NCBI GenBank assembly: GCA_017962605.1
Contig: JAGCUY010000084.1
Coordinates: 1-51,280, forward strand
Origin: Kiritimatiellia bacterium
Lineage (GTDB): Bacteria; Verrucomicrobiota; Kiritimatiellia; RFP12; JAAYLN01
Reading direction: 5' to 3'
DNA: 51,280 bases
Shown here piece by piece: positions 24,302-51,280 of the stretch. Position 1 is the first letter of the stretch. Every line of letters starts with the position of its first letter. The notes beneath the pieces were generated by a model. That model was given only the letters and a program-made list of their open reading frames with translations, was not told where the DNA came from and did no database searches. The translations under genes were made by a program, and so were the position numbers.

Positions 24302-24326
24302 AAGCCCAACAGCAAAGGAAAAGACA

Positions 24327-25595: not shown

Positions 25596-25617
25596 TCAGG
25601 CTAAAGGAGTTCCCGCA

Positions 25618-26802: not shown

Positions 26803-26817
26803 AAGGAACTCCACGCC

Positions 26818-27732: not shown

Positions 27733-27766
27733 CCGCCACCTTACTAAAAGCTAAACTCATAAAACC

Positions 27767-28057: not shown

Positions 28058-28073
28058 AAATGAGGAGGCAATC

Positions 28074-28709: not shown

Positions 28710-28726
28710 TAAAGGAGGGATGAACC

Positions 28727-29095: not shown

Positions 29096-29110
29096 TCCCG
29101 CCATTTCTCT

Positions 29111-30259: not shown

Positions 30260-30320
30260 CTAACACCTAAATCCATTTGACGTTTCATCACTGATTTTTG
30301 TATTATAAACACTGCCCGCC

Positions 30321-32828: not shown

Positions 32829-32832
32829 TCCT

Positions 32833-35319: not shown

Positions 35320-35329
35320 GAACCGAATC

Positions 35330-36664
35330 ATGAAAACATCATTCAAATCCTTCAACCGTCTGCTTTGCGCCATTTCGCTCGGCGCAGCCTTCGCCGCTCC
35401 TCCGGCTGGCGCCCGCGAGACCTTACTGGATACGGATGTAACCTTCTTTGGCTCTGTGGTCTTCCAACCGGGCCAGGAGGCCGCATCCTTCAAGCCGCGG
35501 AATCCGCCCGTGCTTCTCGGCATACAGGCATTTGACGACGGGTCGCTCGTGATGCGCGGATCTGATTCCAGCGGCAATGGGGCGACAATGGACTACGCCA
35601 TCGCGGACATCATCGGGCAGGAAAGCGGCTCTCCAATGCTGGCGTTCGCCTCCCAGACCGCTATTTCGTTCGTTTTCTTTTCAAATGAGGACGGTTTTGT
35701 CGAACTTGACTTTATACAGGACCAGGGACTGCTGCTCACCCCGCTTGACATCGGAGACACCCGCCAGGGGCGCGCCGCCGAGATGGAAGGAGGCGCAATG
35801 CCCATTGTTTCCATTTCCCGCTTGGGCGAAATCGACTCCTGGGTGACGAGTCGATTTTCCGGAGGCGGGTCAACGGCTTCGTCCGCGCTAGATTTTGTCT
35901 CCTCGCCCGGTGCGATGTCTGCGTCGGCGGAATACTCTGGGCTTTCGGCATTCTCCGGGGCGTTTCGGCATCTCCGGGACACAGACGGCGCAGCGTTCGA
36001 CACAGGCGTCAAGGCGGATGCGTCCGATCCGGGGCAGACTCTTTCGCACACCGAGTGGGGCACTCTCTTCCAGCTTCCCACAAGCCCCAGAAACCGGAAC
36101 ATGCAGTTTGAATACCGCAAGCATCCAGCAGTGTGCACTGTCCAGGTTTCCGACAGAGCCGTCACCATGATGGGGGAGGGGTCGCTCAAGGGAACTGTCA
36201 CCTATCGCGGGCCTCTTCAGGCCGGCGGACGCGAGTTCAGGGTTTACGAGACAACGACCTGCGCCGAACACATTGTGGTCTCACCGGAAGGGGACATTGT
36301 GTATTTTTTCCACGTCCCGGGGCAGTTCTACCGGATTCTCCTCTTTGACAGGGGCGACACCGTGGAGCGGCGCACGAGGGAGTCGATGTCTGCCTCGAAC
36401 AGGTTTCCCGGCTTCCCGTTCCCCGAAATCCAGGAATTGTCCAAGTGGTGCTTTGCGCAGCCCGTCCACGCCGACCCCTCGAAAGGGCCAAATCCACGCA
36501 CCGGCAAGTATGAACGGGCTAAATGCCCGCGGTGCCATGGGAAGGGGACAGTCCCGCATGTAATACCTAAATATGGGGAGGGCGGGCCGTGCGACTGCGG
36601 GGTGCCGGGTTGCACTTTCAAGGAAGTTTACCATATCCACGTTCCCTGCCCGATGTGTGAGTGA
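35330..36664 (+). CDS. Secreted hypothetical protein with a C-terminal DnaJ-type zinc-finger-like motif (CPRCHGKG...CDCGVPGC...CPMC)
   Basis: The signal peptide is MKTSFKSFNRLLCAISLGAAFAAPPAGA. The C-terminus is Cys-rich. Confidence 0.45.
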   Translation: MKTSFKSFNRLLCAISLGAAFAAPPAGARETLLDTDVTFFGSVVFQPGQEAASFKPRNPPVLLGIQAFDDGSLVMRGSDSSGNGATMDYAIADIIGQESGSPMLAFASQTAISFVFFSNEDGFVELDFIQDQGLLLTPLDIGDTRQGRAAEMEGGAMPIVSISRLGEIDSWVTSRFSGGGSTASSALDFVSSPGAMSASAEYSGLSAFSGAFRHLRDTDGAAFDTGVKADASDPGQTLSHTEWGTLFQLPTSPRNRNMQFEYRKHPAVCTVQVSDRAVTMMGEGSLKGTVTYRGPLQAGGREFRVYETTTCAEHIVVSPEGDIVYFFHVPGQFYRILLFDRGDTVERRTRESMSASNRFPGFPFPEIQELSKWCFAQPVHADPSKGPNPRTGKYERAKCPRCHGKGTVPHVIPKYGEGGPCDCGVPGCTFKEVYHIHVPCPMCE

Positions 36665-36668
36665 AACC

Positions 36669-37331
36669 ATGAAAAAAACACTAAGCATCATCGCGTGTGC
36701 CACGCTTGCCATTTTGTCCACATCCTGTGCCGCCGTAAATTCGGGTCGGCCGCTGGCGGAGTTGCTTCTCCCCGCCGGCCGAGTGGCGCTCGTGCGCGAC
36801 GGAGGCGTCGCGCTTCGAGGGGCGCTTCAGCCGTCAGATCCAAGCCAGGCGGTGTATATCCTCCAGTATGATCTGGACGAGACGCCGTCTTCCGCCGCTC
36901 GGAAGGCGATTGCCGAATCTGGCGCGACGCTCCTTTCGCCAGTCTCCGGCGGCGCATATCTCGTCCGGGCGACGGCGACGCAGGCGCTTGCAATACTTGA
37001 CGCCGGAATTGTCGCCGCAGCGCGCGAATATCTGGCGGAGGACAAGATCGCCCCCGGGCTTTCCGGCGGTCTTGAGAACGCAGCTCCCTCGACAGGCGCC
37101 GCCAATTCGCGAATTCTGGTAGTTTCCTTTTTCCACGACTGCGAGCCCGCCGCGGTTAAGGAAGCCATTGCCGCAATCGATGGCTGCGAAGTCCTCGACG
37201 GCGCTGATGGGATGTTCCGTGTCAGCGCCACTTCCGCAGCCATTCCATGTGTCGCCTCTCTTCCGCAGATCCAGTCCATCGGCCCTTGGCTCGAACCGAA
37301 AGCGGCATTCCAAGACTCCAACGCATCGTGA
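36669..37331 (+). CDS. Lipoprotein paralogous to the N-terminal pro-region of the upstream S8 subtilase (free-standing propeptide/inhibitor-like)
   Basis: Start was chosen at ATG 36669 (MKKTLSIIACATLAILSTSC lipobox). YILQYDLDE...LLSPVSGGAYLVRATATQALAILDAGIVAAAREY...ILVVSFFHDCEPAAVKEAIAAIDGCEVLDGADGMFRVSATSAAIP...IQSIGPWLEP aligns with WIVQYDPEK...LLSPVAGGAYLVRATKAQQLAILESGQIEATRQY...VFVVSAFDGADNAALREQVAALKGCEVLDGGEGILRVRMTAAGRA...VASIGEWIEP of the subtilase. Confidence 0.55.
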   Translation: MKKTLSIIACATLAILSTSCAAVNSGRPLAELLLPAGRVALVRDGGVALRGALQPSDPSQAVYILQYDLDETPSSAARKAIAESGATLLSPVSGGAYLVRATATQALAILDAGIVAAAREYLAEDKIAPGLSGGLENAAPSTGAANSRILVVSFFHDCEPAAVKEAIAAIDGCEVLDGADGMFRVSATSAAIPCVASLPQIQSIGPWLEPKAAFQDSNAS

Positions 37332-37352
37332 ACTGGTGATGGCGACAAGAAC

Positions 37353-37901
37353 ATGACCGTCTGCATCCCAATGAAAACACTCGAAAAGTCATTCCACACG
37401 GCGGCAGTCTCGCTTGTTGCGGTTTTCCTGGCATCCGGCTGCGCAACGCTAGTAAGCGGATCACATCAACAGTTCAAGATTGACAGCACCCCGCCGGGCG
37501 CAAAAATCTCCTACAACGGGAAGGAGATAGGGACAACGCCGTTTGAAGGGCCCGTTCCAAGAACCGAAAATGCGGAAATCGTCATTTCATTGGATGATTA
37601 CGAGACGAAGACGGTCAATCGGCACGCGAACATGAATCCCATGGTGGCCGGAAATCTTGTGTCATTCTTCGTTCCAGGCGTCATCGTCGACATTTCGACG
37701 GGCGCTTTCTACAAATTCAAAAATCCGACTGTTGAAGTGACATTGAAGAAAACACATGTCCCCAGCCTCGAGTTCTGGCGCAAAATGCTTGAATCAGGTG
37801 CAATAACAAAGGAAATGTACCGCGAGAAAACCATGGAGTTGCGGCAAAGCGGCAAAATCGACGAAGCGACCATGAGGGAAGAATTGCTACAAACGAAATA
37901 G
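37353..37901 (+). CDS. PEGA-domain lipoprotein
   Basis: The lipobox is FLASGC. FKIDSTPPGAKISYNGKEIGTTPFEGPV matches the PEGA motif. Local GC is lower. Confidence 0.55.
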   Translation: MTVCIPMKTLEKSFHTAAVSLVAVFLASGCATLVSGSHQQFKIDSTPPGAKISYNGKEIGTTPFEGPVPRTENAEIVISLDDYETKTVNRHANMNPMVAGNLVSFFVPGVIVDISTGAFYKFKNPTVEVTLKKTHVPSLEFWRKMLESGAITKEMYREKTMELRQSGKIDEATMREELLQTK

Positions 37902-37911
37902 GCAAAAGGCA

Positions 37912-40782
37912 ATGAATTCAAAACATCAAGCGTTTTTCGATTCCGACTATGCCAATCCACCTTCGATGGATTCAATACGGACTATTGGTTCCATCACTAC
38001 AGAGCATTCTACCAAATCTCTTGGCTCCGTAGATCAATACGAACTGTTGCGAAAACTTGGCGGCGGCGGTTTTGGCGTGGTGTATCTCGCGCACGACACC
38101 TCTGGCGACATAGACGTCGCCATAAAGACGCTTCACCCACTCCTAAAACGTAACACGGAGGAGATGGAAAAACTTCGGGACAAGTTCAAACTCGTCAGCA
38201 ACCTGGCACATTCGAACATCGCCTCGCCGCTCGTCCTTCTCCCTTGCCGCGAAATTGCAATCCACGACCCAGAAGCCCGCAGGGAACTTGACCTTTCCCC
38301 GGGAGATGCGGTGATGGTCATGCGCTACGCCCCTGGCGTTACGCTATCCAAGTGGCGTAAGCAGTTCACCAATGGAATAGTGCCTTTCAAAGAGGTTTGC
38401 GAAATCGGCAAACAGGTCGCCTCTGCTCTTGACTACGCACATAGGGAAGAGCACATCGTCCACCGCGACATAAAGCCCGCCAATATCATGGTCGAAACGC
38501 AGGAAGGCGGGAAAATACGCATTCGGATTCTCGACTTCGGCCTGGCGGCCGAAATCCGCGCGTCTATGTCGCGCGTGTCAATGGAGACATGCGACACTTC
38601 CGGGACGCGCCCCTACATGGCGCCAGAGCAATGGAGCGGCCGTTTTCAAAATGGGAACACGGATCAATACGCCCTCGCGTGCGTCCTGTTCGAATTGCTT
38701 TCCGGCGCCCCTCCGTTTGCCGGAGTCTTTGAAACGGGCGACCCCGCAATCATGCGCTCGGCGGTCCAATCCGAGCCGCCGCCCACGCTCCCCGGTCTTT
38801 CACCGGCGGCAAACGCCGCTTTCGCCCGCGCCCTCGCAAAATCCCCCGACGCCCGCTTCCCCTCGTGCGAAGAGTTCATAGCAGCCCTTGGGAAAGCGCT
38901 TTTCGAAGCGCCACCGTCTGGAGCAAGGCGTTTTTTCGACGCCGGGCGCTCATTCTTTGTCAACCGCAACTCCACCCGCCGCGACTCGTCTCCCACGGCA
39001 GATTCCGTCCATTCTGCCTCCACGACTAATTCAAACGCCCCCATAGACACACAGCCGCCGTCCGGGCCAGTCAAACCGCCGCGTCCCAAGTGGCTGCCGA
39101 TTGCGGCCGTCGCCGTAATCGTCCTTCTAATGTACTTCCTTTTCAGGGGAAGCGATGCTCGTCCAGTGGAAGAACCGACACCAGATGTAACTGTAAATAT
39201 GCATTCGGAGGAGAACGATAAATCATATCTCATCGAAATAGAGAAGAAAGAACGTCTCGAAAAATGGAAAGATGAAGCGAAGATCGTTTCCGAAAGCATC
39301 TCCTACTATTCAAAATGGACTGAACATCCCTACTCAAGCCGCTTTGAAAGGGCTCACGATGCGATAAAGACCATATTGGCCGCCACTACGGCGCCAACCC
39401 CGATGGCCGAGGCCGAAAAAGCCATTGAAGACTTGAGGTCTCTAAAATCATGGATGGATGAAAAATCCAAAATCCGCGAAGACTTTGAAGCCCGATGCCT
39501 CGATGTGGAAACAAAACTTGGCAAGCTTGTGAAGGACGAATACGCGGATGCTGCGGCGGACGTTATTAAAATAGCGCAAGACTCGATTGCGCAGGCAAAG
39601 GGGATTCGCGATTCCGGCGATTACGATTCGGCGCTCAAAGCACTGGCCGAGGCAAACGGACTTATGCCCCGTGCTGAAGAAAAGATTAATGATAAAAGAA
39701 GAGCCAACGAAGAAGCGCTTGCCCAATTGACCGAGATAAAGCGGGACGCCAGTGCTAAAATCCAGGGAAGCCAGAATTTGCTTGCCAGATGGAATGACAA
39801 GGCGTGGTCGGATCGCGCCGAAGCCATCAAGAGTGCCGCCACGACAATCGTCCGCAGTTCCGCCCCCGAAGATATCCCGGCTGCAAAAAAGGCGCTTGAT
39901 GCCATTTCTACTGAGGTAAAGTGGATGAATGACAATAGCGTTTCGCGTCAGACGCTCGACAATGTCGAAAAAGAGATGCGCGAACTTCTCAACGGGCTTT
40001 CGCCAACCGTCCGCAAATACGCCAACAGGGAGTTCAGCAACGCAGAAAGTCTCCGCAATGAAGCCGAAAAGCTTCGAGAGGCGGGGAAATACCCCGAATC
40101 GGCAGAGAAGAGCCGCAAGGCGAAAGAGAATTACAGTAGAGCCAAAAATATGGCTGACTATGTTGAAAAAAGGCTGACACGCATTGAAATCGCGAAAAGG
40201 GCGGGGGCGGCCGACGCAGCCGCCATGTCCTGCTATGAATGGGGGGACATGGTCTGGAAGGCTAAAAAGGACGAAGTGGAGGCGGCGGCGAAAAAACTGG
40301 CAAAATGCGCCGATGCCGACGATGCCGAAAATGCCGAAAATCTTAGAAACAACATTGGAGAAGCGCTTTCATGGGCGAAAAAGAACGACTCTGTCTGCCG
40401 GCAAATCGACGACATGCAGAAACAACTGGATGCTCTCAACAAGGAAGCTAAAAGGATCGACATAGCTGGCATTCGGCCGGTAAGCGAATCCAGCGCCATC
40501 GCTCTCTTGGAAAAATCCTCTGAAAACCGCAAGACCGGGAAATTTCCCGAAGCCAAAGCGGATTTAGAAAAGGCAATCGAGATTTTGACAAAGGCCGTTT
40601 CTGAAACAAAGGCGGAGCGGGCGGCAAGAGGGTTGAGGCTCGCGCGGGATTTCGCCAACCAAGGTAAATGGCGCGAATGCCTTGATGCTGCGAACTTCGT
40701 TATGGAGAACTGGGACTCAACAAACGCCGAGGTGCAGGCGCTTGCCAAAAAAGCCCATGAGAACCTGCATTCCCTTAAGTAA
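37912..40782 (+). CDS. Ser/Thr protein kinase with one TM and a ~550-aa C-terminal helical-repeat (coiled-coil/TPR-like) domain
   Basis: Kinase motifs are YELLRKLGGGGFGVVYLAHD, VAIKTL, HRDIKPANIMV, ILDFGLAAE and TRPYMAPEQ. The TM is WLPIAAVAVIVLLMYFLF. The C-terminal module GKWRECLDAANFVMENWDSTNAEVQALAKKA is shared with the kinase-FGE paralogs. Confidence 0.85.
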   Translation: MNSKHQAFFDSDYANPPSMDSIRTIGSITTEHSTKSLGSVDQYELLRKLGGGGFGVVYLAHDTSGDIDVAIKTLHPLLKRNTEEMEKLRDKFKLVSNLAHSNIASPLVLLPCREIAIHDPEARRELDLSPGDAVMVMRYAPGVTLSKWRKQFTNGIVPFKEVCEIGKQVASALDYAHREEHIVHRDIKPANIMVETQEGGKIRIRILDFGLAAEIRASMSRVSMETCDTSGTRPYMAPEQWSGRFQNGNTDQYALACVLFELLSGAPPFAGVFETGDPAIMRSAVQSEPPPTLPGLSPAANAAFARALAKSPDARFPSCEEFIAALGKALFEAPPSGARRFFDAGRSFFVNRNSTRRDSSPTADSVHSASTTNSNAPIDTQPPSGPVKPPRPKWLPIAAVAVIVLLMYFLFRGSDARPVEEPTPDVTVNMHSEENDKSYLIEIEKKERLEKWKDEAKIVSESISYYSKWTEHPYSSRFERAHDAIKTILAATTAPTPMAEAEKAIEDLRSLKSWMDEKSKIREDFEARCLDVETKLGKLVKDEYADAAADVIKIAQDSIAQAKGIRDSGDYDSALKALAEANGLMPRAEEKINDKRRANEEALAQLTEIKRDASAKIQGSQNLLARWNDKAWSDRAEAIKSAATTIVRSSAPEDIPAAKKALDAISTEVKWMNDNSVSRQTLDNVEKEMRELLNGLSPTVRKYANREFSNAESLRNEAEKLREAGKYPESAEKSRKAKENYSRAKNMADYVEKRLTRIEIAKRAGAADAAAMSCYEWGDMVWKAKKDEVEAAAKKLAKCADADDAENAENLRNNIGEALSWAKKNDSVCRQIDDMQKQLDALNKEAKRIDIAGIRPVSESSAIALLEKSSENRKTGKFPEAKADLEKAIEILTKAVSETKAERAARGLRLARDFANQGKWRECLDAANFVMENWDSTNAEVQALAKKAHENLHSLK

Positions 40783-41652: not shown

Positions 41653-41723
41653 AAGTTTTTTGAAGCACCCATGCGCGGCGCCGGGATCGCGCCGCGCATG
41701 ATCTAATTGAATGCAAGGGCGTT

Positions 41724-44185
41724 ATGGACATTGGCGACAATTCTCTTGGCAGCGCAGCAACCATGGCCGAAGGCAACGCCGCAGTCCAGTTTATGCCTTA
41801 TGACGAGCCGTCGCTCGGCTCCGCGCCAACGCTACCTGGCGGCGCAGGGCGGCGGCCCAATCGCCCCGCGCCCGGAGACGACCTTCTTGGGCGCTATACG
41901 GTTCTCGAAGAACTGGGCCAGGGCGGCATGGGTGTGGTTTACAAGTGCCTCGACCGCGAAGGCGGCATCGAGGTCGCCATCAAGTGCCTTCCACCCGAAG
42001 TGACGCGGATCCGGGACGAACTGGAGGAGATTCGGGAAAACTACCAGATAGTCGCCCGCCTTCACCACTCGTCGATTTCCGGTCTGCGCTACTTGGAGCG
42101 CGATTCGGCGAGCGGCGACTACTACGTGGTGATGGACCTCGCGGAAGGCGAGGATCTTTCGCGCATCCTACGCCGCCGGCGCGGGAGGCCAATGCCGCTC
42201 CATGAGGCTTTGGACATCCTGCGCCCCGTTGCCGCAGCGCTTGACTACGCGCATGGGGAAGGCGTCCTGCACCGCGACGTTAAGCCGGCGAACGTGAAAG
42301 TTGAGGCGCTAGGTTGGGAATCTCGCGCAGAGACGCAGAGACGCAGAGACGCAGAGAAGGTGGGGCGAGCTCTCCGAGCGAGCCGCGCAAAAAGGGCGGT
42401 AGAGGCTGGCTTGTAGCGGCACTGCTGGCGCTCGTCGTTGGCGGAGGCATTTGGTTTGCCGTGGGAAATAATGGCGAGCCGCAACTGGGAGGGGCAACGT
42501 CCACGTTGCCCGCTCCGCCGGCTGTCGAAGCGCCCACCGCCTCGCCCACCACCCCGGCCAGCCCGGAAGTCCCGCCACACCAGGCGGGGCCGTCTGCCGC
42601 ACCTGTGGCAGCGGTTCCGCAGAACAAGCCAGAGCCGGCGCCAGTCGCATCTGCTCCTGTCCTCCCCGCCGCACCGGCGGATGATGCCCCGCTTGGCGAT
42701 TGGGAGGATTACCTCCTATCGCTCAAGGAGCGGCGCCAGTCGCTTTTGGACGAGGGCTATCCTGAAAACGGCGAACAGGTCAAGGCAGTCGCCGCGGCGA
42801 TTGCAGTCGCGGACGAACGCATCGCCGCTATGACGGCGAGCATTGAGGAAATCGAGCGCAATGCCCGCGTCGCCAAGGCGCACAAGGACGCCGAACGCGC
42901 CTCCAACCGCTCCCGCATCGCCGAGATCAAACGAAATGTCGGGCGCAAGGTCGCCTCCGCCGCGAAATACGCTGGCGTCGATGACAAGCTTTTCGTGGGA
43001 CGGCGTAAGACCATTGCCGACGCCACGAACCAGCTGGAGAGGATTTCCGACCCCGACGAAATCGAAACCGTGAAGAGACTCCGCATCGATATCGACGACG
43101 CCGTGGACTGGATTCTCCGCAACGGCCCCGCGCGGGAGGGGATCGTCTCGCAGGAGGAGGAACTCAAGGCACTGGGGCCAGAGTTGGAGCGCGTTGGCGC
43201 GGCCAGGCTGGCGGCGCAGTCATTCAACGCCGCGAGGCGCCAGGAGCGCGAAAGCGCCAGTTTGCGGGACAAGGCCGACTACGAAGGCGCCGCCGGGGGC
43301 TATCGGCAGGCGAAGGCCCTCTACGAAAAGGCCATCGCGGAGGCGAAAACGGCACAGGCTGAAGCGTGCGTGGTGCGCGCGGAGTGCCTGAAAACATCTG
43401 GCCTTTGGGAGGATTGCCTCAAGGCCGCCGACGAGGCGCTTGAATGGGATGCCGGCAACGCGAAGGCGCAGACGCTGAAACAGGAGGCGCAGAATGCCAT
43501 CGACGCCGAGCGCAAGGCGAAGGAAGAGGCCGAGCGAAAGAAACGCGAGGCCGAGGAGGCGGCGAGGCGGGATCTGGAGGCAAAGGCCGCAGCCGAGAAG
43601 GCGGAACGCGAACGGCAGGAGCGTGAGCGCCAGGAGTCCGAGCGCAGGAAGCGCGAGACTGAAGAGGCTGCGCGGACACCAAGGGCGGGAGACCTCAAGG
43701 CCGTTGCTGTAGGCTCGCAGACGATCCGCCTTCACTGGTGCCCCGCCGGGTCGTTCATGATGGGTAGCCCGTCAACCGAGAAGGACTGCGGCAGCGACGA
43801 AACGCCACAGCATCTCGTGACTCTGACGCAAGGCTTCTGGATGGGCGAAACTGAGGTGACGCAAGGGTTGTGGGAGGAGGTCTTGGGGAACAATCCAGCC
43901 AATTTTAAGTCCGGCGACGACTACCCCGTGGAGCGCGTCTCATGGGAGGACTGCCAGGAGTTCATGAAGAAATTGAACGCCCGTTTTCCGCAATCCGGCC
44001 TCCGTTGGGCGTTGCCGACCGAGGCGCAATGGGAATACGCCTGCCGAGCTGGGACAACCGGCTCCTACAGCGGTTCGGGGCGTCTCGATGACATTGGGTG
44101 GTATGATGGAAATAGCGGGAGCAAGACTCATCCGGTGAAGCAGAAGCAGCCGAACGCCTGGGGACTTTTACTTCTTTGCACTTGA
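41724..44185 (+). pseudogene. Degenerate paralog of the Ser/Thr-kinase–TM–coiled-coil–FGE-sulfatase-domain family. It is frameshifted inside an octamer tandem repeat, lacks the kinase C-lobe, and its FGE domain is truncated where a DUF4143 ATPase cassette follows.
   Basis: Frame 0 (41724..42416) encodes the kinase N-lobe through HRDVKPANVKVE. After the (cgcagaga)x4 tract the homologous reading (GGASSPSEP...) continues in frame 2 (the 42314..44185 ORF). The C-terminus ends at PVKQKQPNAWGLLLLCT*, whereas the intact paralog continues GLYDMHGNVWEW.... Confidence 0.6.
42326..42357 (+). repeat. (cgcagaga)x4 octamer tandem repeat at the frameshift site of the degenerate kinase paralog. It is followed by the conserved core ggtggggcgagctctccgagcgagccgc (42359-42386).
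   Basis: The repeat and core were read directly. The intact paralog has 3 copies of the analogous cacagaga at 46312-46335, followed by a homologous core (46339-46364). Confidence 0.8.
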
Positions 44186-44336
44186 GAAAGGGTGCGCGAG
44201 AGATTCGTGCGTGAGCCTTTTCCTTTGGATTCTTGCCGAACGCGACGGCGGCAGCTTTCCCATTCTCGCCGATAAGATTTCCGCACCATAGTCTAGTGTG
44301 TTTGCGTAGCAGTTCGCTCCACCTATTTGGATATGC

Positions 44337-44424
44337 CAAAATCAAGTTTACTAGATTTTGGTAGGCACCAAAATCGAACTGCCTCGATTTTGGTATTGAC
44401 AAAAACGTCCATTTTTTGTAGTAT
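44337..44424 (+). promoter_or_regulatory. Array of four alternating CCAAAATC / GATTTTGG half-sites, including a 9-bp-stem hairpin gattttggtaggcaccaaaatc. The last half-site abuts a consensus sigma70 promoter (-35 TTGACA 44396-44401, 17-nt spacer, -10 TAGTAT 44419-44424) for the DUF4143 ATPase gene.
   Basis: The motifs were read directly. The region is AT-richer than its flanks. Confidence 0.5.
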
Positions 44425-44433
44425 GGCCTCACC

Positions 44434-45639
44434 ATGAAACGTGTTTACGAATCGATGCTGCGCGAGCATTTCGCATCGAACAGGCAGATGGCCTTTGTCT
44501 CAGGTCCACGACAGGTGGGCAAGACTTCCCTCGCCGAGAGCGTCCTGCCTAATGCGACGCTCCTGAACTACGACAACCAGTCGCATGCCCGGATCATCGC
44601 CGCCGGGCCCGAGCGCGTCGCCGAATTCGCCGACCTTGCAAATCCATTGAAGTTGGCCCAGGGCATTGTCTTCGACGAATTGCACAAGTTTCCAAAATGG
44701 AAGGGCCTTTTGAAAGGCTTCTTTGACGTTCACGGGAAGGGCTTGAAAGTGGTCGTGACCGGGAGCGCGCGCCTCGACATCTACAAGCGCGGGGGCGACA
44801 GCCTCATGGGGCGCTACTTCCCTTTCCGCATCCACCCGCTTGGCATAGGCGAACTCGAAGGGGGAGACTTGGACACGGAGGGCTTTTTACGAAAGCCAGG
44901 GAAGCCATCGCGTGAAGCCCTCGACCAACTCCTGCAACTAGGCGGATTCCCAGAGCCGTTTTTAAAAGGGAATGCCCGTTTCCGCAACCAATGGAACCGC
45001 ACCCGGCTGGAAAGACTATTCCGTGAGGACATTCGCGATTTTAGCAGGGTGCAAGACATTATCGGCATCCGCTCGCTGGCGTCTCTTGTCGCGTCGCGGG
45101 TTTGCGGGGGTGTGAACTACGCCGCAATGGCATCGGATCTTTCCGTGGCTCCGGACACGGCGAAGTCCTGGCTTGGAATACTCGAATCGGTCTATTACTC
45201 CTATTCCATCACCCCGTGGTTCAGGAATGTCGCCAATTCCATCAGGAAACAGCCAAAGGTCTATTTGTGGGACTGGAGCGCTTTGCCAGATGGCGGCGCG
45301 AAGAATGAGAACTTCATCGCCTCGCAGTTGCTGAAGGCGGTTCACTGGTGGACTGACACCGGACTTGGCGATTTTTCATTGCACTATTTGCGCGACAAGA
45401 CTGGCCGGGAGGTCGATTTCGTTATTGCGCGGGATGGTGTTCCATTCATGCTTGTCGAATGCAAGTCGTCGATGAAGGAAACGTTGAGCCGGACACTGGA
45501 GGAGGTGCAGCGGCAGATGGCGGTCAAATACGCCTTCCAAGTTGGAATGGACGGCGAGTCATCTGACCTCAACCCCTTTGACTACGAGGGGATGGCCATA
45601 AAAGTTTCCGCATTGGATCTCCTGAAAATGCTGATCTAA
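44434..45639 (+). CDS. AAA+ ATPase of the AAA_14/DUF4143 family with a C-terminal PD-(D/E)xK-like motif
   Basis: The N-terminus is MKRVYESMLREHF...VSGPRQVGKTSL (Walker A). The C-terminal D...EVDFVIARDGVPFMLVECKSS follows the restriction-endonuclease-like D/ExK pattern. Confidence 0.8.
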   Translation: MKRVYESMLREHFASNRQMAFVSGPRQVGKTSLAESVLPNATLLNYDNQSHARIIAAGPERVAEFADLANPLKLAQGIVFDELHKFPKWKGLLKGFFDVHGKGLKVVVTGSARLDIYKRGGDSLMGRYFPFRIHPLGIGELEGGDLDTEGFLRKPGKPSREALDQLLQLGGFPEPFLKGNARFRNQWNRTRLERLFREDIRDFSRVQDIIGIRSLASLVASRVCGGVNYAAMASDLSVAPDTAKSWLGILESVYYSYSITPWFRNVANSIRKQPKVYLWDWSALPDGGAKNENFIASQLLKAVHWWTDTGLGDFSLHYLRDKTGREVDFVIARDGVPFMLVECKSSMKETLSRTLEEVQRQMAVKYAFQVGMDGESSDLNPFDYEGMAIKVSALDLLKMLI

Positions 45640-45697
45640 CCGATGGCTTGCCTCCTACCGCTCCAGACAGGAATCTGATAGAATAAAAGCCAGCCGC

Positions 45698-47779
45698 ATG
45701 GACTATGACGAAAACTCCTTGAACTCTGCACCGACGATGGTCGGTGGCCTCAATGGTAGGGCGCGCTCGCCGAGCGCGCCGCAGGGCAACGCTTCCCTTG
45801 GCTCCGCGCCGACGATGCGCGGGCGCACGACGCCGCGCGGGGAACGCCTGCGCGTCGGCGACTCGCTTCTTGGCCGCTACACCGTGCTTGCCGAGTTGGG
45901 CGAGGGCGGCATGGGGGTCGTTTACAAGTGCCTCGACACCGTCGGCGGCATCGAGGTCGCAATCAAGTGTCTGCCGCCGGAACTCTCGCGCAACGAGTCG
46001 GAGATGGAGGGCATCCGGGAGAACTACGCCATCGTGGCGCGCCTCCATCATTCGGCGATATCCGGCCTGCGGAATCTGGAGAAGGACCCCGACTTCGGCG
46101 AATACTACCTTGTGATGGATCTTGCCCAAGGCGAGGACCTATCCACGATCTTGCGCCGCCGGCGCGGCACGCCGATGGCGCTCGGCGAGGCGCTGGACAT
46201 TTTGCGTCCGCTTGCCTCGGCGCTCGACTACGCCCATGGCGAAAGAGTCCTGCACCGCGACGTCAAGCCTGCGAACGTGAAGGTGGAGACGCTGGTCGCC
46301 GGAAAATCTCACACAGAGACACAGAGACACAAAGAAGGCGGGGCGACTTCTTCGAGCGAGCCGCATGTTCAGCTGCTTGACTTCGGGCTGGCGGCGGAGG
46401 TGCGGTCGTCGATGTCGCGCATGTCGCTGCGCGGCCACGCGGGTTCGAGTGGAACTCCGGCCTACATGGCGCCTGAGCAGTGGGAGGCGAAGCGGCAGAG
46501 CGCGGCGACGGATCAGTATTCGCTGGCGGTGATGGCCTACCAGATGCTCGCGGGCTACCTTCCCTTCGACGCCGATGACATGGCGCTGCTGAAGGACGCG
46601 GTGCTGACGCGCCCGCCGGAGGAGATCGAAGGCGTTCCCGCGCACGTGAACGCGGCGCTGATGCGGGCGCTCGCGAAGAACCCGAAGGAGAGGTTTGCAA
46701 GTTGCGCGGAGTTCGTGAAGTTTCTGCAAAAAAGAGAAACGATATCTCCGAAGCCTCCGCAGGATCAGCCTGATGGAATGGCGGACGATGAAGATTATGT
46801 TGAACTACAGGAGATGGCTGGAGGCGCGCTTCAAAAAGCGGAAAAAATAAGAAGGTATCTTGCCAAACCGCATCCTCTTCCCCCTCGTCGCGGCGCCTGG
46901 CTATGGTGGGGAGCGGCATTAGTGGCTATTGTTTTTGCACACAAATCCATTTCACGCATTTATTGGTCATGGGTCAATGCTCGTCACGCCGTTGAGCAAG
47001 CGAAAGCAGAATGGCAGAAGATGGCACACAAGACCGGCGAGAGCAAGGTCGTTTGCGTCGGTTCGCAGGAGATCGCGCTTCGCTGGTGTCCAGCTACGAC
47101 GAGTGAAGACTGGAAGAGAATTTCTGGCGGTAAAGACTTCTTTATGATGGGGTCGCCATCCTCCGAAGAGGGACGAGACAACGATGAGACGCAACACCGT
47201 GTGACACTCACGAAGGGCTTTTGGATGGGCGAGACCGAGGTGACGCAGGGTTTGTGGAAATATGTCATGGGGTCGAATCCTTCATATTTCAAGTCTGGTG
47301 ACGACTATCCAGTCGAGCAAGTCTCATGGTACGACTGCCAGGAGTTCCTGAAGAAGCTGAATGCCCGCTCTCCACAATCCGGCCTCCGCTGGGATCTGCC
47401 CACCGAGGCGCAATGGGAATACGCCTGCCGGGCCGGAACAACCGGTATGTATGGCGGCTCGGGGCACCTTGACGACATGGGCTGGTATGATGGGAACAGC
47501 GGGAACAAACCCCGCCCTGTAAAGCAGAAACGACCTAATGACTGGGGCCTCTACGATATGCACGGCAATGTCTGGGAGTGGTGCCAGGATCGGCATGGGA
47601 ACTATCCGTCTGATGCCGTGACCGACCCAACCAGCGCCGCATCTGGCGACTGCATCCTACGAGGCGGCAGCTGTTGGTTCGCCTCTCGGATCTGCCGCTC
47701 GGCAAACCGTTACGGGCACGACCCTAGCCCCTGCGGCTGGGACGATGGCTTCCGCGTCGCCTTGGTTTCGGCTGATTAG
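45698..47779 (+). CDS. Ser/Thr protein kinase – TM – FGE-sulfatase (formylglycine-generating-enzyme-like) domain fusion, the intact paralog
   Basis: Kinase motifs are LGEGGMGVVYKCLD, VAIKCLPPE, HRDVKPANVKVE, LLDFGLAAE and TPAYMAPEQ. The TM is AWLWWGAALVAIVF. The FGE domain runs RWCPATTS...GFWMGETEVTQGLW...GLYDMHGNVWEWCQD...RGGSCWFASRICRSANRYG. Confidence 0.85.
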   Translation: MDYDENSLNSAPTMVGGLNGRARSPSAPQGNASLGSAPTMRGRTTPRGERLRVGDSLLGRYTVLAELGEGGMGVVYKCLDTVGGIEVAIKCLPPELSRNESEMEGIRENYAIVARLHHSAISGLRNLEKDPDFGEYYLVMDLAQGEDLSTILRRRRGTPMALGEALDILRPLASALDYAHGERVLHRDVKPANVKVETLVAGKSHTETQRHKEGGATSSSEPHVQLLDFGLAAEVRSSMSRMSLRGHAGSSGTPAYMAPEQWEAKRQSAATDQYSLAVMAYQMLAGYLPFDADDMALLKDAVLTRPPEEIEGVPAHVNAALMRALAKNPKERFASCAEFVKFLQKRETISPKPPQDQPDGMADDEDYVELQEMAGGALQKAEKIRRYLAKPHPLPPRRGAWLWWGAALVAIVFAHKSISRIYWSWVNARHAVEQAKAEWQKMAHKTGESKVVCVGSQEIALRWCPATTSEDWKRISGGKDFFMMGSPSSEEGRDNDETQHRVTLTKGFWMGETEVTQGLWKYVMGSNPSYFKSGDDYPVEQVSWYDCQEFLKKLNARSPQSGLRWDLPTEAQWEYACRAGTTGMYGGSGHLDDMGWYDGNSGNKPRPVKQKRPNDWGLYDMHGNVWEWCQDRHGNYPSDAVTDPTSAASGDCILRGGSCWFASRICRSANRYGHDPSPCGWDDGFRVALVSAD

Positions 47780-47998
47780 CGAGGTCCCGCACCATTTCAC
47801 GAATTGTGATAAATTTTCAGCAACCAAGGTTTTGGAAACGACACTTGCTGAAAAAGTTTTTTCTAAGCAAAGGCATAAGAAAATCGGAGTGTTTCCTATA
47901 CACCTCCCTACATGGCCACGTTCCTGGCGAACGCGAAGTTGAGCGATGTTTTTTGAAGTTTGAATCAAGAAGGGCTCCTGTCGTCTCTTTTGATAATC

Positions 47999-48007
47999 TG
48001 CTATAAT
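47999..48007 (+). promoter_or_regulatory. Extended -10 element TGcTATAAT, 9 nt upstream of an orphan kinase-family start codon (48017)
   Basis: The element was read directly. Confidence 0.35.
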
Positions 48008-48016
48008 ACATGCCCC

Positions 48017-48116
48017 ATGGACCTTGACGAAAACTCCTTGAACTCAATGCCGACAGCCGCCGATGGGACGAGGTGGTCGTTGGCATTGAGTTAAGCGATT
48101 GTTCGTCGTAGTTCAT
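48017..48116. pseudogene. Two head-to-head 5' fragments of kinase-FGE family genes forming a ~100-nt imperfect palindrome. The plus fragment encodes MDLDENSLNSMPTA and the minus fragment MNYDEQSLNSMPTT; both stop after ~25-30 codons.
   Basis: Compare the starts of the full-length paralogs: MDYDENSLNSAPTM (45698) and MDIGDNSLGSAATM (41724). The plus strand reads ATGGACCTTGACGAAAACTCCTTGAACTCAATGCCGACA and the reverse strand ATGAACTACGACGAACAATCGCTTAACTCAATGCCAACG. They face each other across an ~18-nt centre. Confidence 0.55.
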
Positions 48117-48187
48117 GTGGCTATTGTTCTAGCAGAAAGAGAACAAGGATGTGGAAAGAGAAAAGACTCCACGGCTTGCGGCAGCAC

Positions 48188-49360
48188 CTATAGGGCACCG
48201 CTGATGAACTCGACATAATTGTCGCGTGAAACGCATCGCCATTTCGCTTCTGGATAGGAGTCGGCAAATATCTTCGGGCATTTGGCCTTGGCCGCCTTGA
48301 CGGGATTCCATTTGAACTCGTAGGCGGCAAGCCCTTGGTCGGATGATTCCTCAAGGTAGTCTATCTCGTTGGCGCCGTTCCCCTTTGTCCGCCAGAAGAA
48401 CGACTGGACATCACGCTCGGCCAGTTGGTTGCGCTTGATGCGTTCAGCAATAAGATAGTTCTCGAAAAGATGCCCTGTGTCCTCGCGGGCGTCAAGGGGC
48501 AGGTAGTTCCCAATCAGCGCGTTCCTGATGCCTGTGTCGCAAAAGTAGATTTTCCGAGCCTTCTTCAACTCGTTCCGCGCATTTCTCGAATACGCCGGGA
48601 GCCGGAACACGACAAAGGCCTTTTCCAGACGTTCGACATAGGACTCCACAGTCTCGTTGTCCATGCCGATCAAGTCGCCAACCTCTTTATATGAAACTTC
48701 GTTCCCGACCTGCAGGGATAGTGCCTTTGCCAGTTTTCCAAGTTTGTCCGAATTTTGCAGGTTCTTCCACTTGAGGACATCCTTGAAGAGATATGCCGAA
48801 CAAAGATTCTTAAGGACGCGTCGCCGCGCTGTGTCGGAAGGCGCCGTCGCCACGTCAGGGTAGGTGCCATAAAGGAGCCTGGTTTCAAGCATGTTCCTTT
48901 CGGAAACGGCACTCGTCAAACGGGCCAGTTCGGCAAAGGACAGCGTTGGCAAGACATATTGCTCCAAGCGGCCCGTCAGGGGTTCTCCAACTTCTTCCGA
49001 AAGCTCGAATGATGATGAGCCGGTCGCTACGATGCGAATGTCCTTCAAGCGGTCATGGATGATTTTCAAAACCAGGCCAATGTCGCTGATCTTCTGGGCC
49101 TCATCGACAAAAAGCGTCTTTGCCTCACCCATGATGGAGCGAGCCTTTTCGGGGGTCATGGTTTCGTATGCGAGCAGAGATCGTTCAGCAAGGACGTCTC
49201 CGGAAAGCACGGCAACGCCATCCTTCCTGATGGATTCGGCATCGAGGAGGTGTTCCACGAGAGTCGTTTTCCCCGTCTGGCGCGAACCATACAGGATTAC
49301 AACCTTCCGGCCTTGCAGCGCCTCTGCAAGCGCTCTTTCCAAATCTCTTTGCACATACAT
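48188..49360 (-). CDS. AAA+ ATPase of the AAA_14/DUF4143 family, third paralog
   Basis: Start was chosen at ATG (revcomp of 49358-49360), giving MYVQRDLERALAEALQGRKVVILYGSRQTGKTTLVEHLL; the ORF track extends to a TTG at 49381. The C-terminal GANEIDYLEE...AAYEFKWN is PD-(D/E)xK-like. Confidence 0.75.
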   Translation of the reverse strand: MYVQRDLERALAEALQGRKVVILYGSRQTGKTTLVEHLLDAESIRKDGVAVLSGDVLAERSLLAYETMTPEKARSIMGEAKTLFVDEAQKISDIGLVLKIIHDRLKDIRIVATGSSSFELSEEVGEPLTGRLEQYVLPTLSFAELARLTSAVSERNMLETRLLYGTYPDVATAPSDTARRRVLKNLCSAYLFKDVLKWKNLQNSDKLGKLAKALSLQVGNEVSYKEVGDLIGMDNETVESYVERLEKAFVVFRLPAYSRNARNELKKARKIYFCDTGIRNALIGNYLPLDAREDTGHLFENYLIAERIKRNQLAERDVQSFFWRTKGNGANEIDYLEESSDQGLAAYEFKWNPVKAAKAKCPKIFADSYPEAKWRCVSRDNYVEFISGAL

Positions 49361-49380
49361 GGGGAAAAACCTTTGACACA

Positions 49381-49433
49381 ATTATACATCAAACTTTTTG
49401 CGACTGCAACCGCAAAAAGTTGAAACTTTTTGC
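49381..49433 (-). promoter_or_regulatory. Minus-strand sigma70 promoter (-35 TTGCAG = revcomp of 49404-49409; -10 TATAAT = revcomp of 49381-49386; 17-nt spacer). A GCAAAAAG/CTTTTTGC hairpin (49412-49433) precedes it, and a third half-site copy (49394-49401) lies in the spacer.
   Basis: The motifs were read directly. The hairpin + direct half-site + promoter architecture matches that at 44337-44424, though the sequences differ. Confidence 0.45.
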
Positions 49434-49458
49434 GGAAAACCATACGGCCGGATGCCAT

Positions 49459-51280
49459 TTATTGAACTGGAACCAAAGCAACGCGGACGCCCAGATTGTC
49501 GAGGCGGTAGCCGGGATCGAGCCCAAGCCGGGAGGCCGAACGGCAGCCGCGGGCGTCGTAGTACCACGAGCCCCCGCGGAACACGCGGAGCGAGCCGGAC
49601 GACAGCCCGGTCGGATCAGTCACGGTGCCGGACGGATATTTGCCATACCAGTCCTGACACCACTCACAAACATTGCCGTGCATATCGTAAAGGCCCCAGG
49701 CGTTCGCCTCATAGCTGCGCACCGGTGTCGTTTTTTGCTTGTAAGTTCCCTTACGCGTTGTCCCGCAGGGGTAATTGCCGTCGCAGTTCGCCTTGTCGCC
49801 ATTCAAGGCATTCCCCCAGAAATAGGCCGTCTGACTACCAGCCCGGCAGGCGTATTCCCATTGCGCCTCAGTCGGCAGCGCCCAGCAGAGACCAGATTGC
49901 GAGGATTGTGCGTTTATTTTCTTAAGGAACTCCTGGCAGTCGTTCCAGGAGACATTCTCCACGGGGCGCTGCGCAGAGGTCTTCCCGCCAAATCCAAGAA
50001 ACTTCCCGTCGAGGAAGTTTGATGGATTGTTTCCCATGACCTCCTCCCACAATCCCTGCGTGACCGGCGTCTCACCAAGCCAAAAACCATTTGTCAATAT
50101 GACTTCATGCAGCCGTTCATCTATATCTATATCTCGTCCCTCTTCGTCATCTGGACTGCCCATCAAAAAGAAGTCATGTCCTCCGGAAATCTTCTTCCAG
50201 GCAACGCTTGTCGTCGCAGGACACCAGCGGAAGTTCATTGAAACGCCCGGAGCGATTGTCACACTCTTTAATTCACCTGGCCTAGGGTCATTGGCATGGC
50301 GCTGCTCTTCTTCCTTTGTCTTTCGTGCCGCTTCCCTTCGCTCCGTTTCTTCCTTTGCCTTGCGCTCCGCTTCCTCGCGCGCTTTACGTTCCGCTTCTTC
50401 CTTTGCTTTGCGCTCCGCTTCTTCTCTGGCCTTGCGCGCAGCCTCTTCGCGAGCCTTGCGTTCTGTCTCCTCACGTACCCGCCTGGCTTTCTTCAAATCG
50501 CCCAGCGCAGATTCGGCGGCATTGAGGCTTTCTGCGGCGGCGGCGAAGCGGCCAAACTTGCAGGCCTCTTCGGCTATCGCAAGTTCGTCCTCGCCCTTGA
50601 CGACAAACTTAGCGAATTCCTTGTCCGTGCGGTCTTCAGCGGGAATCGCCTTAATTGCTTTTGTCAGCGCCAACTTGCGTCGCAGGACATCGGCCTCGGA
50701 AATGGCCGAAGACTGCGGCTCGCCCGGAGGACTCGCCCTACCATCCTGTCTCTGCGCCCTCTGCGCCTCTGCGTTAAAAGCCCTTTGCGGACTTTGCGGA
50801 CTTTGCGCAAGACAACTTTCCACAAACTCTGCACAACTTGCAAACCTCTCCTTCGGGTTCTTCGCAAGCGCCTTTTGCAACGCCGCGTTCACATGTGCAG
50901 GAATGTCCTCAATCTCTTCTGGTGCGTCGCGCTCAATCGCCGTCCGCATGATAATCGGATCGCCGGTCTCAAAAACACCGGAGAAGGGCGGCGCGCCGGA
51001 TAGCATTTCATAGGCGACGCAGGCAAGCGCATACTGGTCGGTGCGGCCGTCCTGCTTGCGGCCCAGCCACTGCTCAGGCGCCATGTAGGGCCGTGTGCCT
51101 GAAGTGTCGCCAGTCTCCGTCGAGATGCGCGACATCGACGAGCGTATCTCCGCGGCAAGGCCGAAGTCGAGAATACGCACGCGGATTTTGGAAGTGGCTA
51201 GTGCGAAGTGGTTAGTGGTTAGTTGCGGCTCGCCCGGAGAGCTCGCCCCACCATCACCTTTCAACTTTTCAACTCTCAAC
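49459..51280 (-). CDS. Ser/Thr protein kinase – coiled-coil – FGE-sulfatase domain fusion paralog, 5'-partial; the N-terminus lies beyond the window end
   Basis: The kinase C-lobe is ILDFGLAAEIRSSMSRISTETGDTSGTRPYMAPEQ. There is an EAERKAREE octapeptide repeat region. The complete FGE domain is present (GFWLGETPVTQGLW...GLYDMHGNVCEWCQD...RGGSWYYDARGCRSASR). Confidence 0.8.
   Translation of the reverse strand, partial: LRVEKLKGDGGASSPGEPQLTTNHFALATSKIRVRILDFGLAAEIRSSMSRISTETGDTSGTRPYMAPEQWLGRKQDGRTDQYALACVAYEMLSGAPPFSGVFETGDPIIMRTAIERDAPEEIEDIPAHVNAALQKALAKNPKERFASCAEFVESCLAQSPQSPQRAFNAEAQRAQRQDGRASPPGEPQSSAISEADVLRRKLALTKAIKAIPAEDRTDKEFAKFVVKGEDELAIAEEACKFGRFAAAAESLNAAESALGDLKKARRVREETERKAREEAARKAREEAERKAKEEAERKAREEAERKAKEETERREAARKTKEEEQRHANDPRPGELKSVTIAPGVSMNFRWCPATTSVAWKKISGGHDFFLMGSPDDEEGRDIDIDERLHEVILTNGFWLGETPVTQGLWEEVMGNNPSNFLDGKFLGFGGKTSAQRPVENVSWNDCQEFLKKINAQSSQSGLCWALPTEAQWEYACRAGSQTAYFWGNALNGDKANCDGNYPCGTTRKGTYKQKTTPVRSYEANAWGLYDMHGNVCEWCQDWYGKYPSGTVTDPTGLSSGSLRVFRGGSWYYDARGCRSASRLGLDPGYRLDNLGVRVALVPVQ
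50296..50485 (-). repeat. Imperfect 24-nt tandem repeat (~8 copies) encoding (E-E-A-E-R-K-A-R/K)n in the coiled-coil region of the minus-strand kinase-FGE gene
   Basis: Period 24 is visible as ...gcgcgctttacgttccgcttcttc / ctttgctttgcgctccgcttcttc / tctggccttgcgcgcagcctcttc / gcgagccttgcgttctgtctcctc. Confidence 0.7.
50714..50810 (-). repeat. Second internal copy of the core+SSR element in the minus-strand kinase-FGE gene. The core (50714-50743) is flanked by ctctgcgcc-type and ctttgcgga-type short tandem repeats (50744-50810).
   Basis: The coding strand reads gcgcaaagtccgcaaagtccgcaaaggg...cgcagaggcgcagagggcgcagagacagg + atggtagggcgagtcctccgggcgagccgca. It encodes QSPQSPQ...AQRAQRQDGRASPPGEPQ. 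Confidence 0.7.
51224..51280 (-). repeat. Third copy of the core+SSR element in the same gene, sitting between the kinase catalytic loop and the DFG motif. The core (51224-51252) is followed by ytttcaac octamer repeats that run to the window end.
   Basis: The coding strand reads gttgagagttgaaaagttgaaag + gtgatggtggggcgagctctccgggcgagccgcaacta. It encodes KLKGDGGASSPGEPQ. Confidence 0.7.

Follow-up and report, generated by a model that had tools for sequence, protein, structure and literature searches.

Fusions of protein kinases to C-type-lectin (CLec) domains have been described as targets of diversity-generating retroelements (DGRs) and as putative sensors in conflict systems (PMC7517822, PMC10907252, PMC7159879). 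In DGR proteins of the FGE fold, such as TvpA of Treponema denticola (structure 2Y3C) and the kinase-CLec proteins of cyanobacteria and Thiohalocapsa, an FGE-type CLec domain lies at the C terminus and its last ~40 codons are variable. We have analyzed an array of Ser/Thr kinase–FGE genes of this general design at the right-hand end of a 51,280-nt stretch (positions 1 to 51,280 of contig JAGCUY010000084.1, assembly GCA_017962605.1; the whole stretch is called the window here) from a Kiritimatiellia bacterium of the lineage RFP12; JAAYLN01. With a probability of about 0.65, we read the array as part of a hypervariable chromosomal island, resembling a defence island, whose lectin-fold sensor kinases were diversified by ordinary, unprogrammed DNA processes acting on modules shared between paralogs. 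Ligand sensing in these proteins is presumed to lie with the TvpA-like FGE/C-type-lectin domain at the C terminus.

The array shares the N-terminal Pkinase fusion with the kinase-CLec targets of DGRs (PMC7517822, PMC10907252), and an NNC/NNT codon signature is found here. It differs from the DGR proteins in that about 90 kb of examined sequence contains no template repeat (TR) or reverse transcriptase (RT), in that the variable regions (VRs) do not vary among near-clonal strains, and in that its diversity comes by way of paralog recombination, indels, and frameshifts. The FGS sensors of NTP-dependent conflict systems described by Kaur, Burroughs, Iyer, and Aravind in 2020 (PMC7159879) are similar in carrying the FGS domain invariably C-terminal to varied signalling or effector domains, in that paralogs within a genome differ, and in having caspase, subtilase, and AAA+ ATPase genes nearby, but no vWA-MoxR, STAND, or GTPase core stands beside the kinases described here. 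The Hanks-type kinase domain of the array also matches the defence kinase PD-T4-6 end to end (E 1.8e-59), as well as mad6 of the MADS system and PglW of BREX. However, only the generic kinase domain is matched, those systems are without FGE, and the NCBIfam scores are far under the cut-offs (152 versus 460 bits for MAD6 and 81 versus 990 for PglW). Staphylococcal Stk2 is another Ser/Thr kinase associated with defence.

The array occupies the right half of an island that begins at ~19.4 kb and comprises the paralogs K4, A, B, and C, with a further paralog, D, beyond the window end. It is thus bigger than in the original prediction, an earlier reading of the DNA alone, by K4 upstream and by the kinase gene D, with two FGE domains, and a DUF4143 gene (DUF4143-3) downstream. 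K4 (37912-40782, plus strand), the leftmost family member, encodes a 956-residue Hanks-type Ser/Thr kinase (Pfam Pkinase, E 2.4e-37) with a transmembrane (TM) helix and a coiled-coil tail and without an FGE domain; its kinase is of the C type and is 58% identical to that of C. Copy A is split into two open reading frames (ORFs) on the plus strand. The first (41724-42416) encodes the leader MDIGDNSLGSAATM and the kinase N-lobe with the catalytic loop, covering positions 1-129 of the 263 in the Pkinase profile, so that the DFG motif and the C-lobe are missing and A does not qualify as a kinase domain. The second (42314-44185) encodes a TM helix (42404-42463), a long coiled coil, and a truncated FGE domain (43739-44170; positions 8-179 of 255 in the FGE-sulfatase profile) that is cut before the VR.

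Copy B (45698-47779, plus strand) is intact at 693 residues. It consists of a kinase domain (45878-46696; Pkinase E 5.6e-38) with the HRD and DFG motifs, a TM helix assigned by eye (46895-46939), a TvpA-like FGE domain (47117-47761; full-length Pfam FGE-sulfatase match, E 5.8e-36), and a VR-like end (47657-47779). The best solved-structure match of the FGE domain is TvpA (2Y3C, E 4.7e-30), with true formylglycine-generating enzymes at ~1e-10. Copy C (49459-51280, minus strand) is partial in the window; it lacks a TM helix and encodes a K4-type kinase, a coiled coil containing 24-nt repeats, a full-length FGE domain (FGE-sulfatase E 6.9e-45), and a VR at 49459-49581. The HRDxKPxN and DFG motifs of Hanks kinases are present in B, C, D, and K4, and a full-length C-terminal FGE-sulfatase domain (PF03781) is present in B and C. 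These assignments bear out what had been said of an intact kinase–TM–FGE gene at 45698-47779, of a frameshifted degenerate copy without a C-lobe and with a truncated FGE domain, and of an opposite-strand copy running out of the window; the last is C (49459-51279), which is complete at 824 residues in the contigs L083 and L180.

The evidence for recombination comes from a comparison of haplotypes. In six further assemblies from different samples the locus occurs at an identity of at least 99.95% and in the same order, including the split A and a palindrome between B and C that is described below. The six haplotype-1 assemblies are near-clonal. A second haplotype, reached via the orthologue of D (P0003), is represented by the contigs L088, L089, L090, and L113. 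Its gene order is also conserved (PEGA protein, K4, a ~270-aa protein, A, DUF4143-1, DUF4143-2, C, DUF4143-3, and D). Between the haplotypes, the flanking orthologues (those of the PEGA protein, K4, and the ~270-aa protein) are 68-81% identical at the nucleotide level, whereas the block containing A, DUF4143-1, the palindrome, and DUF4143-2 (41665-49400) is 99-99.6% identical between the window and L088 or L113. A block of such identity inside flanks so divergent implies recent exchange, and the comparison points to a recent transfer between species-level lineages.

Two segments within the exchanged block are missing from L088. One is the 5' half of DUF4143-1 (44415-44973). The other is the body of B with its 3' flank (45736-47994); the flank itself (47780-47994), found missing by blastn together with the B body, has a GC content of 0.46 with the palindrome and had no match among the sequences fetched. 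Where the window has two direct repeats of a leader, one at the start of B and the other in a plus-strand orphan 5' end, L088 has a single leader. This leader is the same as the minus arm of the palindrome, and 5 of its 28 positions set it apart from both window leaders. A deletion of B by simple crossover between its flanking leaders was rejected on account of these differences. The simplest reading is that homologous exchange brought in a cassette running from leader to leader, with B and the beginning of the following gene, although the polarity of the event is not proven.

The genes C and D have exchanged domains between the haplotypes. The two C alleles agree at 74% in the kinase and share no homology beyond it, and one has a TM helix and the other none. 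The D alleles are 66-67% identical with their second FGE domain (FGE2) exchanged: the D of L088 has a B-type kinase (81% identity at the protein level) and a B-type FGE2 (70%), whereas the D of the window haplotype has a C-type kinase and a different FGE2. The kinase-loop inserts of B and of the L088 D are nearly identical at the nucleotide level against a background of 83%. A 130-nt VR remnant of the window-type C lies in L088 downstream of that haplotype's own C and starts exactly at the RGGSW framework. In a comparison of C and D of the window haplotype, successive 60-nt blocks matched at 58/60, 60/60, and 59/60 positions and then at 41/60; the first ~180 nt available of D are ~98% identical to C, the identity decays to ~70%, and the contig ends within this repeat. 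Together, the swapped domains, the VR remnant, and the conversion tract indicate gene conversion and cassette replacement among the paralogs.

Short modules are shared across the family at the 5' ends of its genes. Three instances of the leader pattern lie in the window (45698, plus strand; 48017, plus strand; 48116, minus strand), where none is expected by chance. The promoter-leader module of B (45640-45740, plus strand) has the sequence TGATAGAAT at 45676, an ATG at 45698, and the leader MDYDENSLNSAPTM, and forms the left direct repeat flanking the B cassette. The other two leaders make up a 140-nt imperfect palindrome (47997-48136) of convergent orphan modules, with a plus-strand ATG at 48017 (encoding MDLDENSLNSMPTAADGTRWSLALS followed by a stop codon) and a minus-strand ATG at 48116 (encoding MNYDEQSLNSMPT and onward). 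Its 65-nt arms, separated by a 10-nt spacer, include the -10 boxes, and its RNA has a predicted folding energy of -71.7 kcal/mol (z -8.4). The palindrome occurs in both haplotypes. B and the plus-strand orphan share a 21-nt identical leader core.

The two opposed orphan 5' ends had been predicted here, as had the extended -10 promoter of one of them, which is TGCTATAAT at 47999-48007 on the plus strand. That description needs correction on two counts. The ends are convergent and overlap in the palindrome, and the minus-strand orphan is not short but a 99-aa ORF from which family similarity is gone after about 14 codons. A snap-back origin of the palindrome was also considered and rejected, because its arms resemble the leaders of two different paralogs: over 40 nt the plus arm has exactly the sequence of the L088 C leader, and the minus arm and the L088 D leader agree at 91%. 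Such an origin is further disfavoured by the upstream parts of the arms, which by eye from the printed sequences are ~55-60% alike. C itself is without a promoter-leader module and starts 7 nt past the stop codon of DUF4143-3. The family genes that have one carry a TGnTAgAAT box 9-13 nt 5' of the ATG (45676-45697, 47999-48016, and 48117-48133 in the window and 9981-10000 in L088), and no Shine-Dalgarno-like sequence was seen by eye between box and ATG. This arrangement suggests that family mRNAs are leaderless or nearly so.

A second shared module is a linker element, GGTGGGGCGAGCTCTCCGAGCGAGCCGC, which in A lies at 42356-42386 on the plus strand and encodes the peptide GGASSPSEP. Others lie at 46340-46364, 45753-45784, 51225-51255 (minus strand), and 50713-50744 (minus strand), and three matches at no more than three mismatches compare with none expected. 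The copies in A and C are 94% identical, whereas the kinases of these proteins are otherwise ~40% identical. In homologues the element is translated in three frames, giving GGASSPSEP, VGRALRASR, and GEGALSERAAS. As a ~25-31-nt element, GGTGGGGCGAGCTCTCCGRGCGAGCC, it is confined to the kinase–FGE family, where it lies at domain boundaries.

Both A and B contain a tandem repeat of an 8-nt unit at homologous positions, in the kinase loop between the HRDxKPxN and DFG motifs. The tract in A (42326-42357, plus strand) is a perfect run of 4.0 units of CGCAGAGA as detected by TRF and is the site of the frameshift; removal of one unit fuses the two A ORFs into a continuous reading frame of 817 residues. 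The tract in B (46311-46335, plus strand; ACACAGAG, 3.1 units by TRF) is polymorphic. It has three units in the window, L001, L002, and L177 and two in L083, and the loss of one ACACAGAG unit is the sole difference between L083 and the window over 16.8 kb. The 8-nt deletion splits B into 224- and 455-residue ORFs. A retains its four units in L088 and is ~99.6% identical across the haplotypes. When the virtual in-frame A was compared with 5.8 billion proteins, no fused protein was found and the 574-aa second ORF alone was matched, which led us to reject A as a gene with a switchable on-form. A behaves as a stable pseudogene, and even in frame it would be without the DFG motif and C-lobe.

The corresponding loop of K4 has the sequence VETQEGGKIRIRILDFG, and the 8-nt unit GAGACGCA matches its local ETQ codons. 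The tract therefore appears to have arisen by local amplification, and this explains it better than a mobile, MITE-like (miniature inverted-repeat transposable element-like) insertion of the tract together with the GGASSPSEP element, which was rejected. In the wider family the same loop has 12 residues and no repeats, while close homologues carry varied short tandem modules in it. In C the loop insert begins at 51160. Past the window end, at L180 5619-5661, the coding sequence just before this insert is duplicated perfectly, in inverted form and over 20 bp, at the insert's start (GTGATGGTCGAGACGCTTCC gtc GGAAGCGTCTCGACCATCAC), and short tandem repeats of the AGTTGAAA and CTAACCA types come next. 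Kinase-loop inserts like that of C suggest a template-switch origin.

Point mutations have also inactivated genes of the array. Among the near-clonal contigs the array has six SNPs, of which three are nonsense mutations, all three of them transversions. They are E653* in K4 (39868), in one near-clonal contig, and L74* in DUF4143-1 (44654) and K90* in B (45965), both in L177. A 22-kb upstream control region has eight SNPs, none of them nonsense, and one in-frame change in an 18-nt repeat.

The 3' ends of C and D bear a different kind of variation. A common framework, GGCTCGTGG NNC NNC NNC GCCCGC NNC TGCCGTTCGGCC, runs through the terminal ~40 codons of the window haplotype's C and D and of the L088 D, with variation confined to NNC/NNT codons. 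Variable sites in the VR fall 13, 11, and 4 times on the first, second, and third codon positions, compared with 7, 9, and 18 times in the 40 codons upstream. Invariant adenines number 2 of 71 in the VR and 13 of 86 upstream. This pattern of codon positions and adenines is what adenine mutagenesis from AAC/AAT codons leaves behind. C and D match at 82% over their final ~250 nt, whereas the rest of their FGE domains cannot be aligned.

A retroelement to account for this pattern was not found nearby. The adenine-mismatch scan for TR/VR pairs recovered such pairs in both control loci, L039 and L071, whereas the window, its extension (EXT2), L088, and L113 yielded none, and the annotated ORFs include no RT. 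Neither the inferred TR nor the VR framework had a match in IMG/VR. An active DGR within reach was rejected on these results. C and D are probably past or occasional DGR targets, judging by their codon pattern, and the element, if any, would be elsewhere in the genome.

The DUF4143 genes of the locus were predicted to sit at recombination breakpoints. DUF4143-1 (44434-45639, within a module at 44335-45639, plus strand) and DUF4143-2 (48188-49381, within a module at 48188-49440, minus strand) both encode an AAA_14 ATPase fused to a DUF4143 domain, the latter a member of the PD-(D/E)XK superfamily (PMC3424549). Both match the PADLOC candidate defence model PDC-S01 (E 7.2e-52 and 3.7e-135), as does a third AAA_14-DUF4143 gene in the window (4471-5712; E 1.9e-127). 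The two genes are indeed divergent (they share 20% identity, and the four DUF4143 genes of locus and window are mutually 20-29% identical), but they are self-contained modules, each an ORF with about 80-100 nt upstream, and no part of the duplicated unit. DUF4143-1 has orthologues of 88-91% amino acid identity in other contexts without kinases, sharing the nucleotide segment 44335-45632 only. Those of DUF4143-2 (77-83%) lie between housekeeping genes elsewhere, likewise without kinases, with nucleotide homology over ~49440-48198. Their occurrence in unrelated contexts indicates that the DUF4143 genes are independent insertions and not recombination machinery. With that, with identities of 20-29%, and with a DUF4143 gene near only 2 of 80 kinase–FGE genome loci, we rejected them as members of a duplicated unit or as kinase partners.

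The homology between A and B stops near 44166 by sequence comparison, close to the start of the DUF4143-1 module at 44335, and the insertion of DUF4143-1 may have removed the 3' end of A. No individual defence locus is more frequent in rumen genomes than PDC-S01 (PMC13356809), whose activity has yet to be proven across the family (PMC12988326). Like other members, those in the window are single genes for an AAA ATPase fused to DUF4143 in varied contexts, and all three match the models; the difference here is that three or four unrelated members are interleaved with kinase genes. Many close homologues of DUF4143-2 (P0122-P0240) are on contigs of 1.3-3 kb that barely exceed the gene, as would be expected of assembly breaks at the ends of a repeated or strain-variable module. 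The gene at 4471-5712 stands alone between a copper ATPase and an Na+/H+ antiporter and has a GC content of 0.46-0.49 in a backbone of 0.66-0.69, which fits a recently acquired single-gene module.

In the mechanism that we favor, homologous recombination and gene conversion would act at the ~110-nt promoter-leader module, the kinase core, and the VR framework of the FGE domain. Such events would account for the gain or loss of a whole gene (B) and for the exchange of kinase and FGE domains from one position to another (C and D), with the pair of orphan 5' ends and the orphan VR of the other haplotype as their scars. Replication slippage in the 8-nt repeat would shift the frame, with A fixed out of frame and B polymorphic, while point nonsense mutations would knock out individual genes. 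DGR-type adenine mutagenesis may have acted on the VRs of C and D at some time. Candidate PDC-S01 genes would have inserted between the kinase genes, one of them likely truncating the 3' end of A.

The original prediction attributed the rearrangements to recombination between paralogs, by inversion or gene conversion. Conversion and cassette exchange are upheld by the B indel of L088, the C and D swaps, and the ~98% identical tract; the inversion part is not, and the original prediction had nothing on the repeat polymorphism, the inactivating SNPs, or the DGR-like codon signature. Site-specific inversion is known from the R64 shufflon and from the vsa genes of Mycoplasma pulmonis, and here a recombinase would act at the leader to flip segments between the opposed 5' ends and so link different gene bodies to expression sites. 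The array resembles those systems in having a conserved 5'-end sequence of family members in both orientations, twice without gene bodies; the leader is conserved at the nucleotide level, including the 21-nt core, and the B leader and the minus-strand orphan could flank B as inverted sites. Nevertheless, no recombinase was found among the window ORFs, in 5.7 kb past the window, or in 10 kb past D in L088; altogether, 57 kb of haplotype 1 and ~30 kb of haplotype 2 gave none. The orientation is identical in all nine assemblies (six of haplotype 1 and three of haplotype 2), and an inversion isoform was not seen among them. The opposed orphans, between which the inversion had been placed, are separated by a mere 10 nt, which leaves no segment to invert. 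A flip would also make no new protein, as each full gene has a start of its own, and it is expression sites and not gene bodies that are in excess. The one structural difference seen at a leader involves an indel bounded by direct repeats and no inversion. Programmed inversion is accordingly very improbable.

Simple-sequence contingency loci, with tetra- to heptanucleotide repeats in genes of Haemophilus, Neisseria, and Helicobacter, offer a different precedent. On this reading the octanucleotide tracts would be selected phase-variation switches, reversibly turned on and off by slipped-strand mispairing to give mixed receptor repertoires. As in those loci, an intragenic repeat with a unit length not divisible by three lies within the A and B ORFs at the same loop, and a unit-number difference switches the frame in otherwise identical strains: the one-unit change that turns B off is all that distinguishes L083, A is out of frame by exactly one unit, and the loops of close homologues carry other short tandem modules where the wider family has none. 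The array departs from them in its 8-nt unit, in its short tracts of 2-4 units, and in the location of these in a cytoplasmic kinase loop rather than in the gene of a surface structure or methyltransferase. The constancy of A in the second haplotype, the failure to find it in frame, and its missing C-lobe count against a switch in that gene, and in B the nonsense SNP means that loss need not be reversible and the unit change was observed once. The short tracts and the four stable units of A in two haplotypes argue for a low switching rate, and we consider selected phase variation unlikely. A broader proposal is that of a germline cassette system, without or alongside a retroelement, in which the promoter-leader and the linker GGTGGGGCGAGCTCTCCGRGCGAGCC would be dedicated recombination joints that reassort kinase, middle, and lectin cassettes among paralogs and species, with the octanucleotide tracts as reversible on/off elements. 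We hold this to be improbable; if true, it would amount to a combinatorial, phase-variable repertoire of C-type-lectin sensor kinases, that is, antigenic variation on the receptor and not the antigen. A DGR-target array, in which a retroelement elsewhere rewrites the C-terminal VRs of C and D (and formerly of others) and the similarity of the 3' ends reflects homing from one template repeat, is a tentative possibility. The TvpA-like FGE domains, the single VR framework with NNC/NNT variation and almost no invariant adenines, the 82% identical 3' ends beside unalignable FGE sequence, and the precedent of kinase-CLec targets (PMC7517822, PMC10907252) all speak for it, but the empty TR/VR, RT, and IMG/VR searches and the identity of VRs in five near-clonal assemblies do not, and it leaves the B indel, the kinase swaps, and the frameshifts unexplained. 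Neutral decay of dispensable duplicates, with the fragments, frameshifts, and stops as debris of no adaptive meaning, is rather doubtful. It would suit A as a pseudogene 99.6% identical in two haplotypes, the independent knock-outs in K4, DUF4143-1, and B, and the half-deleted DUF4143-1 of L088. Against decay, the ORFs of B, C, and D are long and intact, with complete FGE domains and every kinase motif in place, allele replacement has imported intact domains and is not deletion alone, VR variation falls on first and second codon positions, and in Kiritimatiellae and Lentisphaerae the kinase–FGE family is both very large and intact.

Several points weigh against our preferred reading of unprogrammed diversification as well. 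The comparison involves two haplotypes only and so does not fix the direction of individual events (whether B was gained or lost, and which of two alleles came first); near-clonal contigs do not test stability independently, and consensus assemblies from metagenomes cannot show minority isoforms. An identical architecture with the same pseudogene fragments in other genomes, which the original prediction had named as evidence against recombination, is what haplotype 1 presents in its near-clonal contigs, and by that measure it speaks against a locus in active rearrangement. Simple deletion between the window leaders fails to explain the L088 leader with its 5 of 28 differences, and the origin of the palindrome is not accounted for. 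Five near-clonal assemblies have the same VR sequences in B and C, and neither a TR nor an RT was found, which counts against the past DGR action that the mechanism includes. The nonsense enrichment consists of three SNPs (Fisher p about 0.055 versus the control region), slippage rates may be low with 2-4 repeat units, and the B polymorphism is a single observation. The sensor and defence roles of the proteins and any selective value of their variation are presumed, as are past DGR action and the order of events, whereas the layout of the array, the differences between strains, the conversion tracts, and the repeat-number change are directly observed.

The left half of the window consists of housekeeping genes, and the nearest genomes are Kiritimatiellae metagenome-assembled genomes from ruminant guts, at 40-46% identity. 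Upstream of the kinases, the segment ~19400-37900 contains an HTH_17 gene (~19397-19735), an SPFH/zinc-ribbon gene (21452-23500), about eight family-less ORFs, an IetA-like AAA+ ATPase gene (29111-30259), a caspase-domain protein gene (30321-32828), a subtilase gene weakly similar to IetS (32725-35319), and the gene for the PEGA protein. This block looks like a multi-gene conflict system, and the IetA-like ATPase, caspase, and subtilase next door fit a conflict island. No tRNA and no Rfam family was found in the window, and known RNA families and tRNA integration sites were rejected on that account. Two further tandem repeats lie outside the array. A 7-nt repeat, AAGTCGA (7.7 copies at 2199-2252, with a 21-nt super-period and 97% matches by TRF), is near the 5' end of the long ORF of a copper P-type ATPase (1787-4198), where it is either perhaps slippage-prone or upstream of the true start. 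An 18-nt repeat, ACAAACGCCAGAGCTGCA (2.9 copies at 20058-20110), lies in a gene of 518 residues and is one unit shorter, in frame, in the near-clonal contig L178.

Fusions of Ser/Thr kinases to FGE lectin domains are thought to be sensors of ligands or invaders, and their diversification has so far been ascribed to diversity-generating retroelements. The natural strain comparison described here indicates that such a repertoire is also reshaped by cassette exchange between paralogs at promoter-leader and framework sequences. It can be reshaped as well by whole-block transfer between species-level lineages, by slippage of very short repeats in a tolerant kinase loop, and by rapid knock-outs. The scope of the finding is modest, covering two haplotypes of one uncultured lineage at the level of sequence. 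Within it, the locus provides a sequence-defined place in which recombination-based and retroelement-based diversification of one sensor family may be compared.

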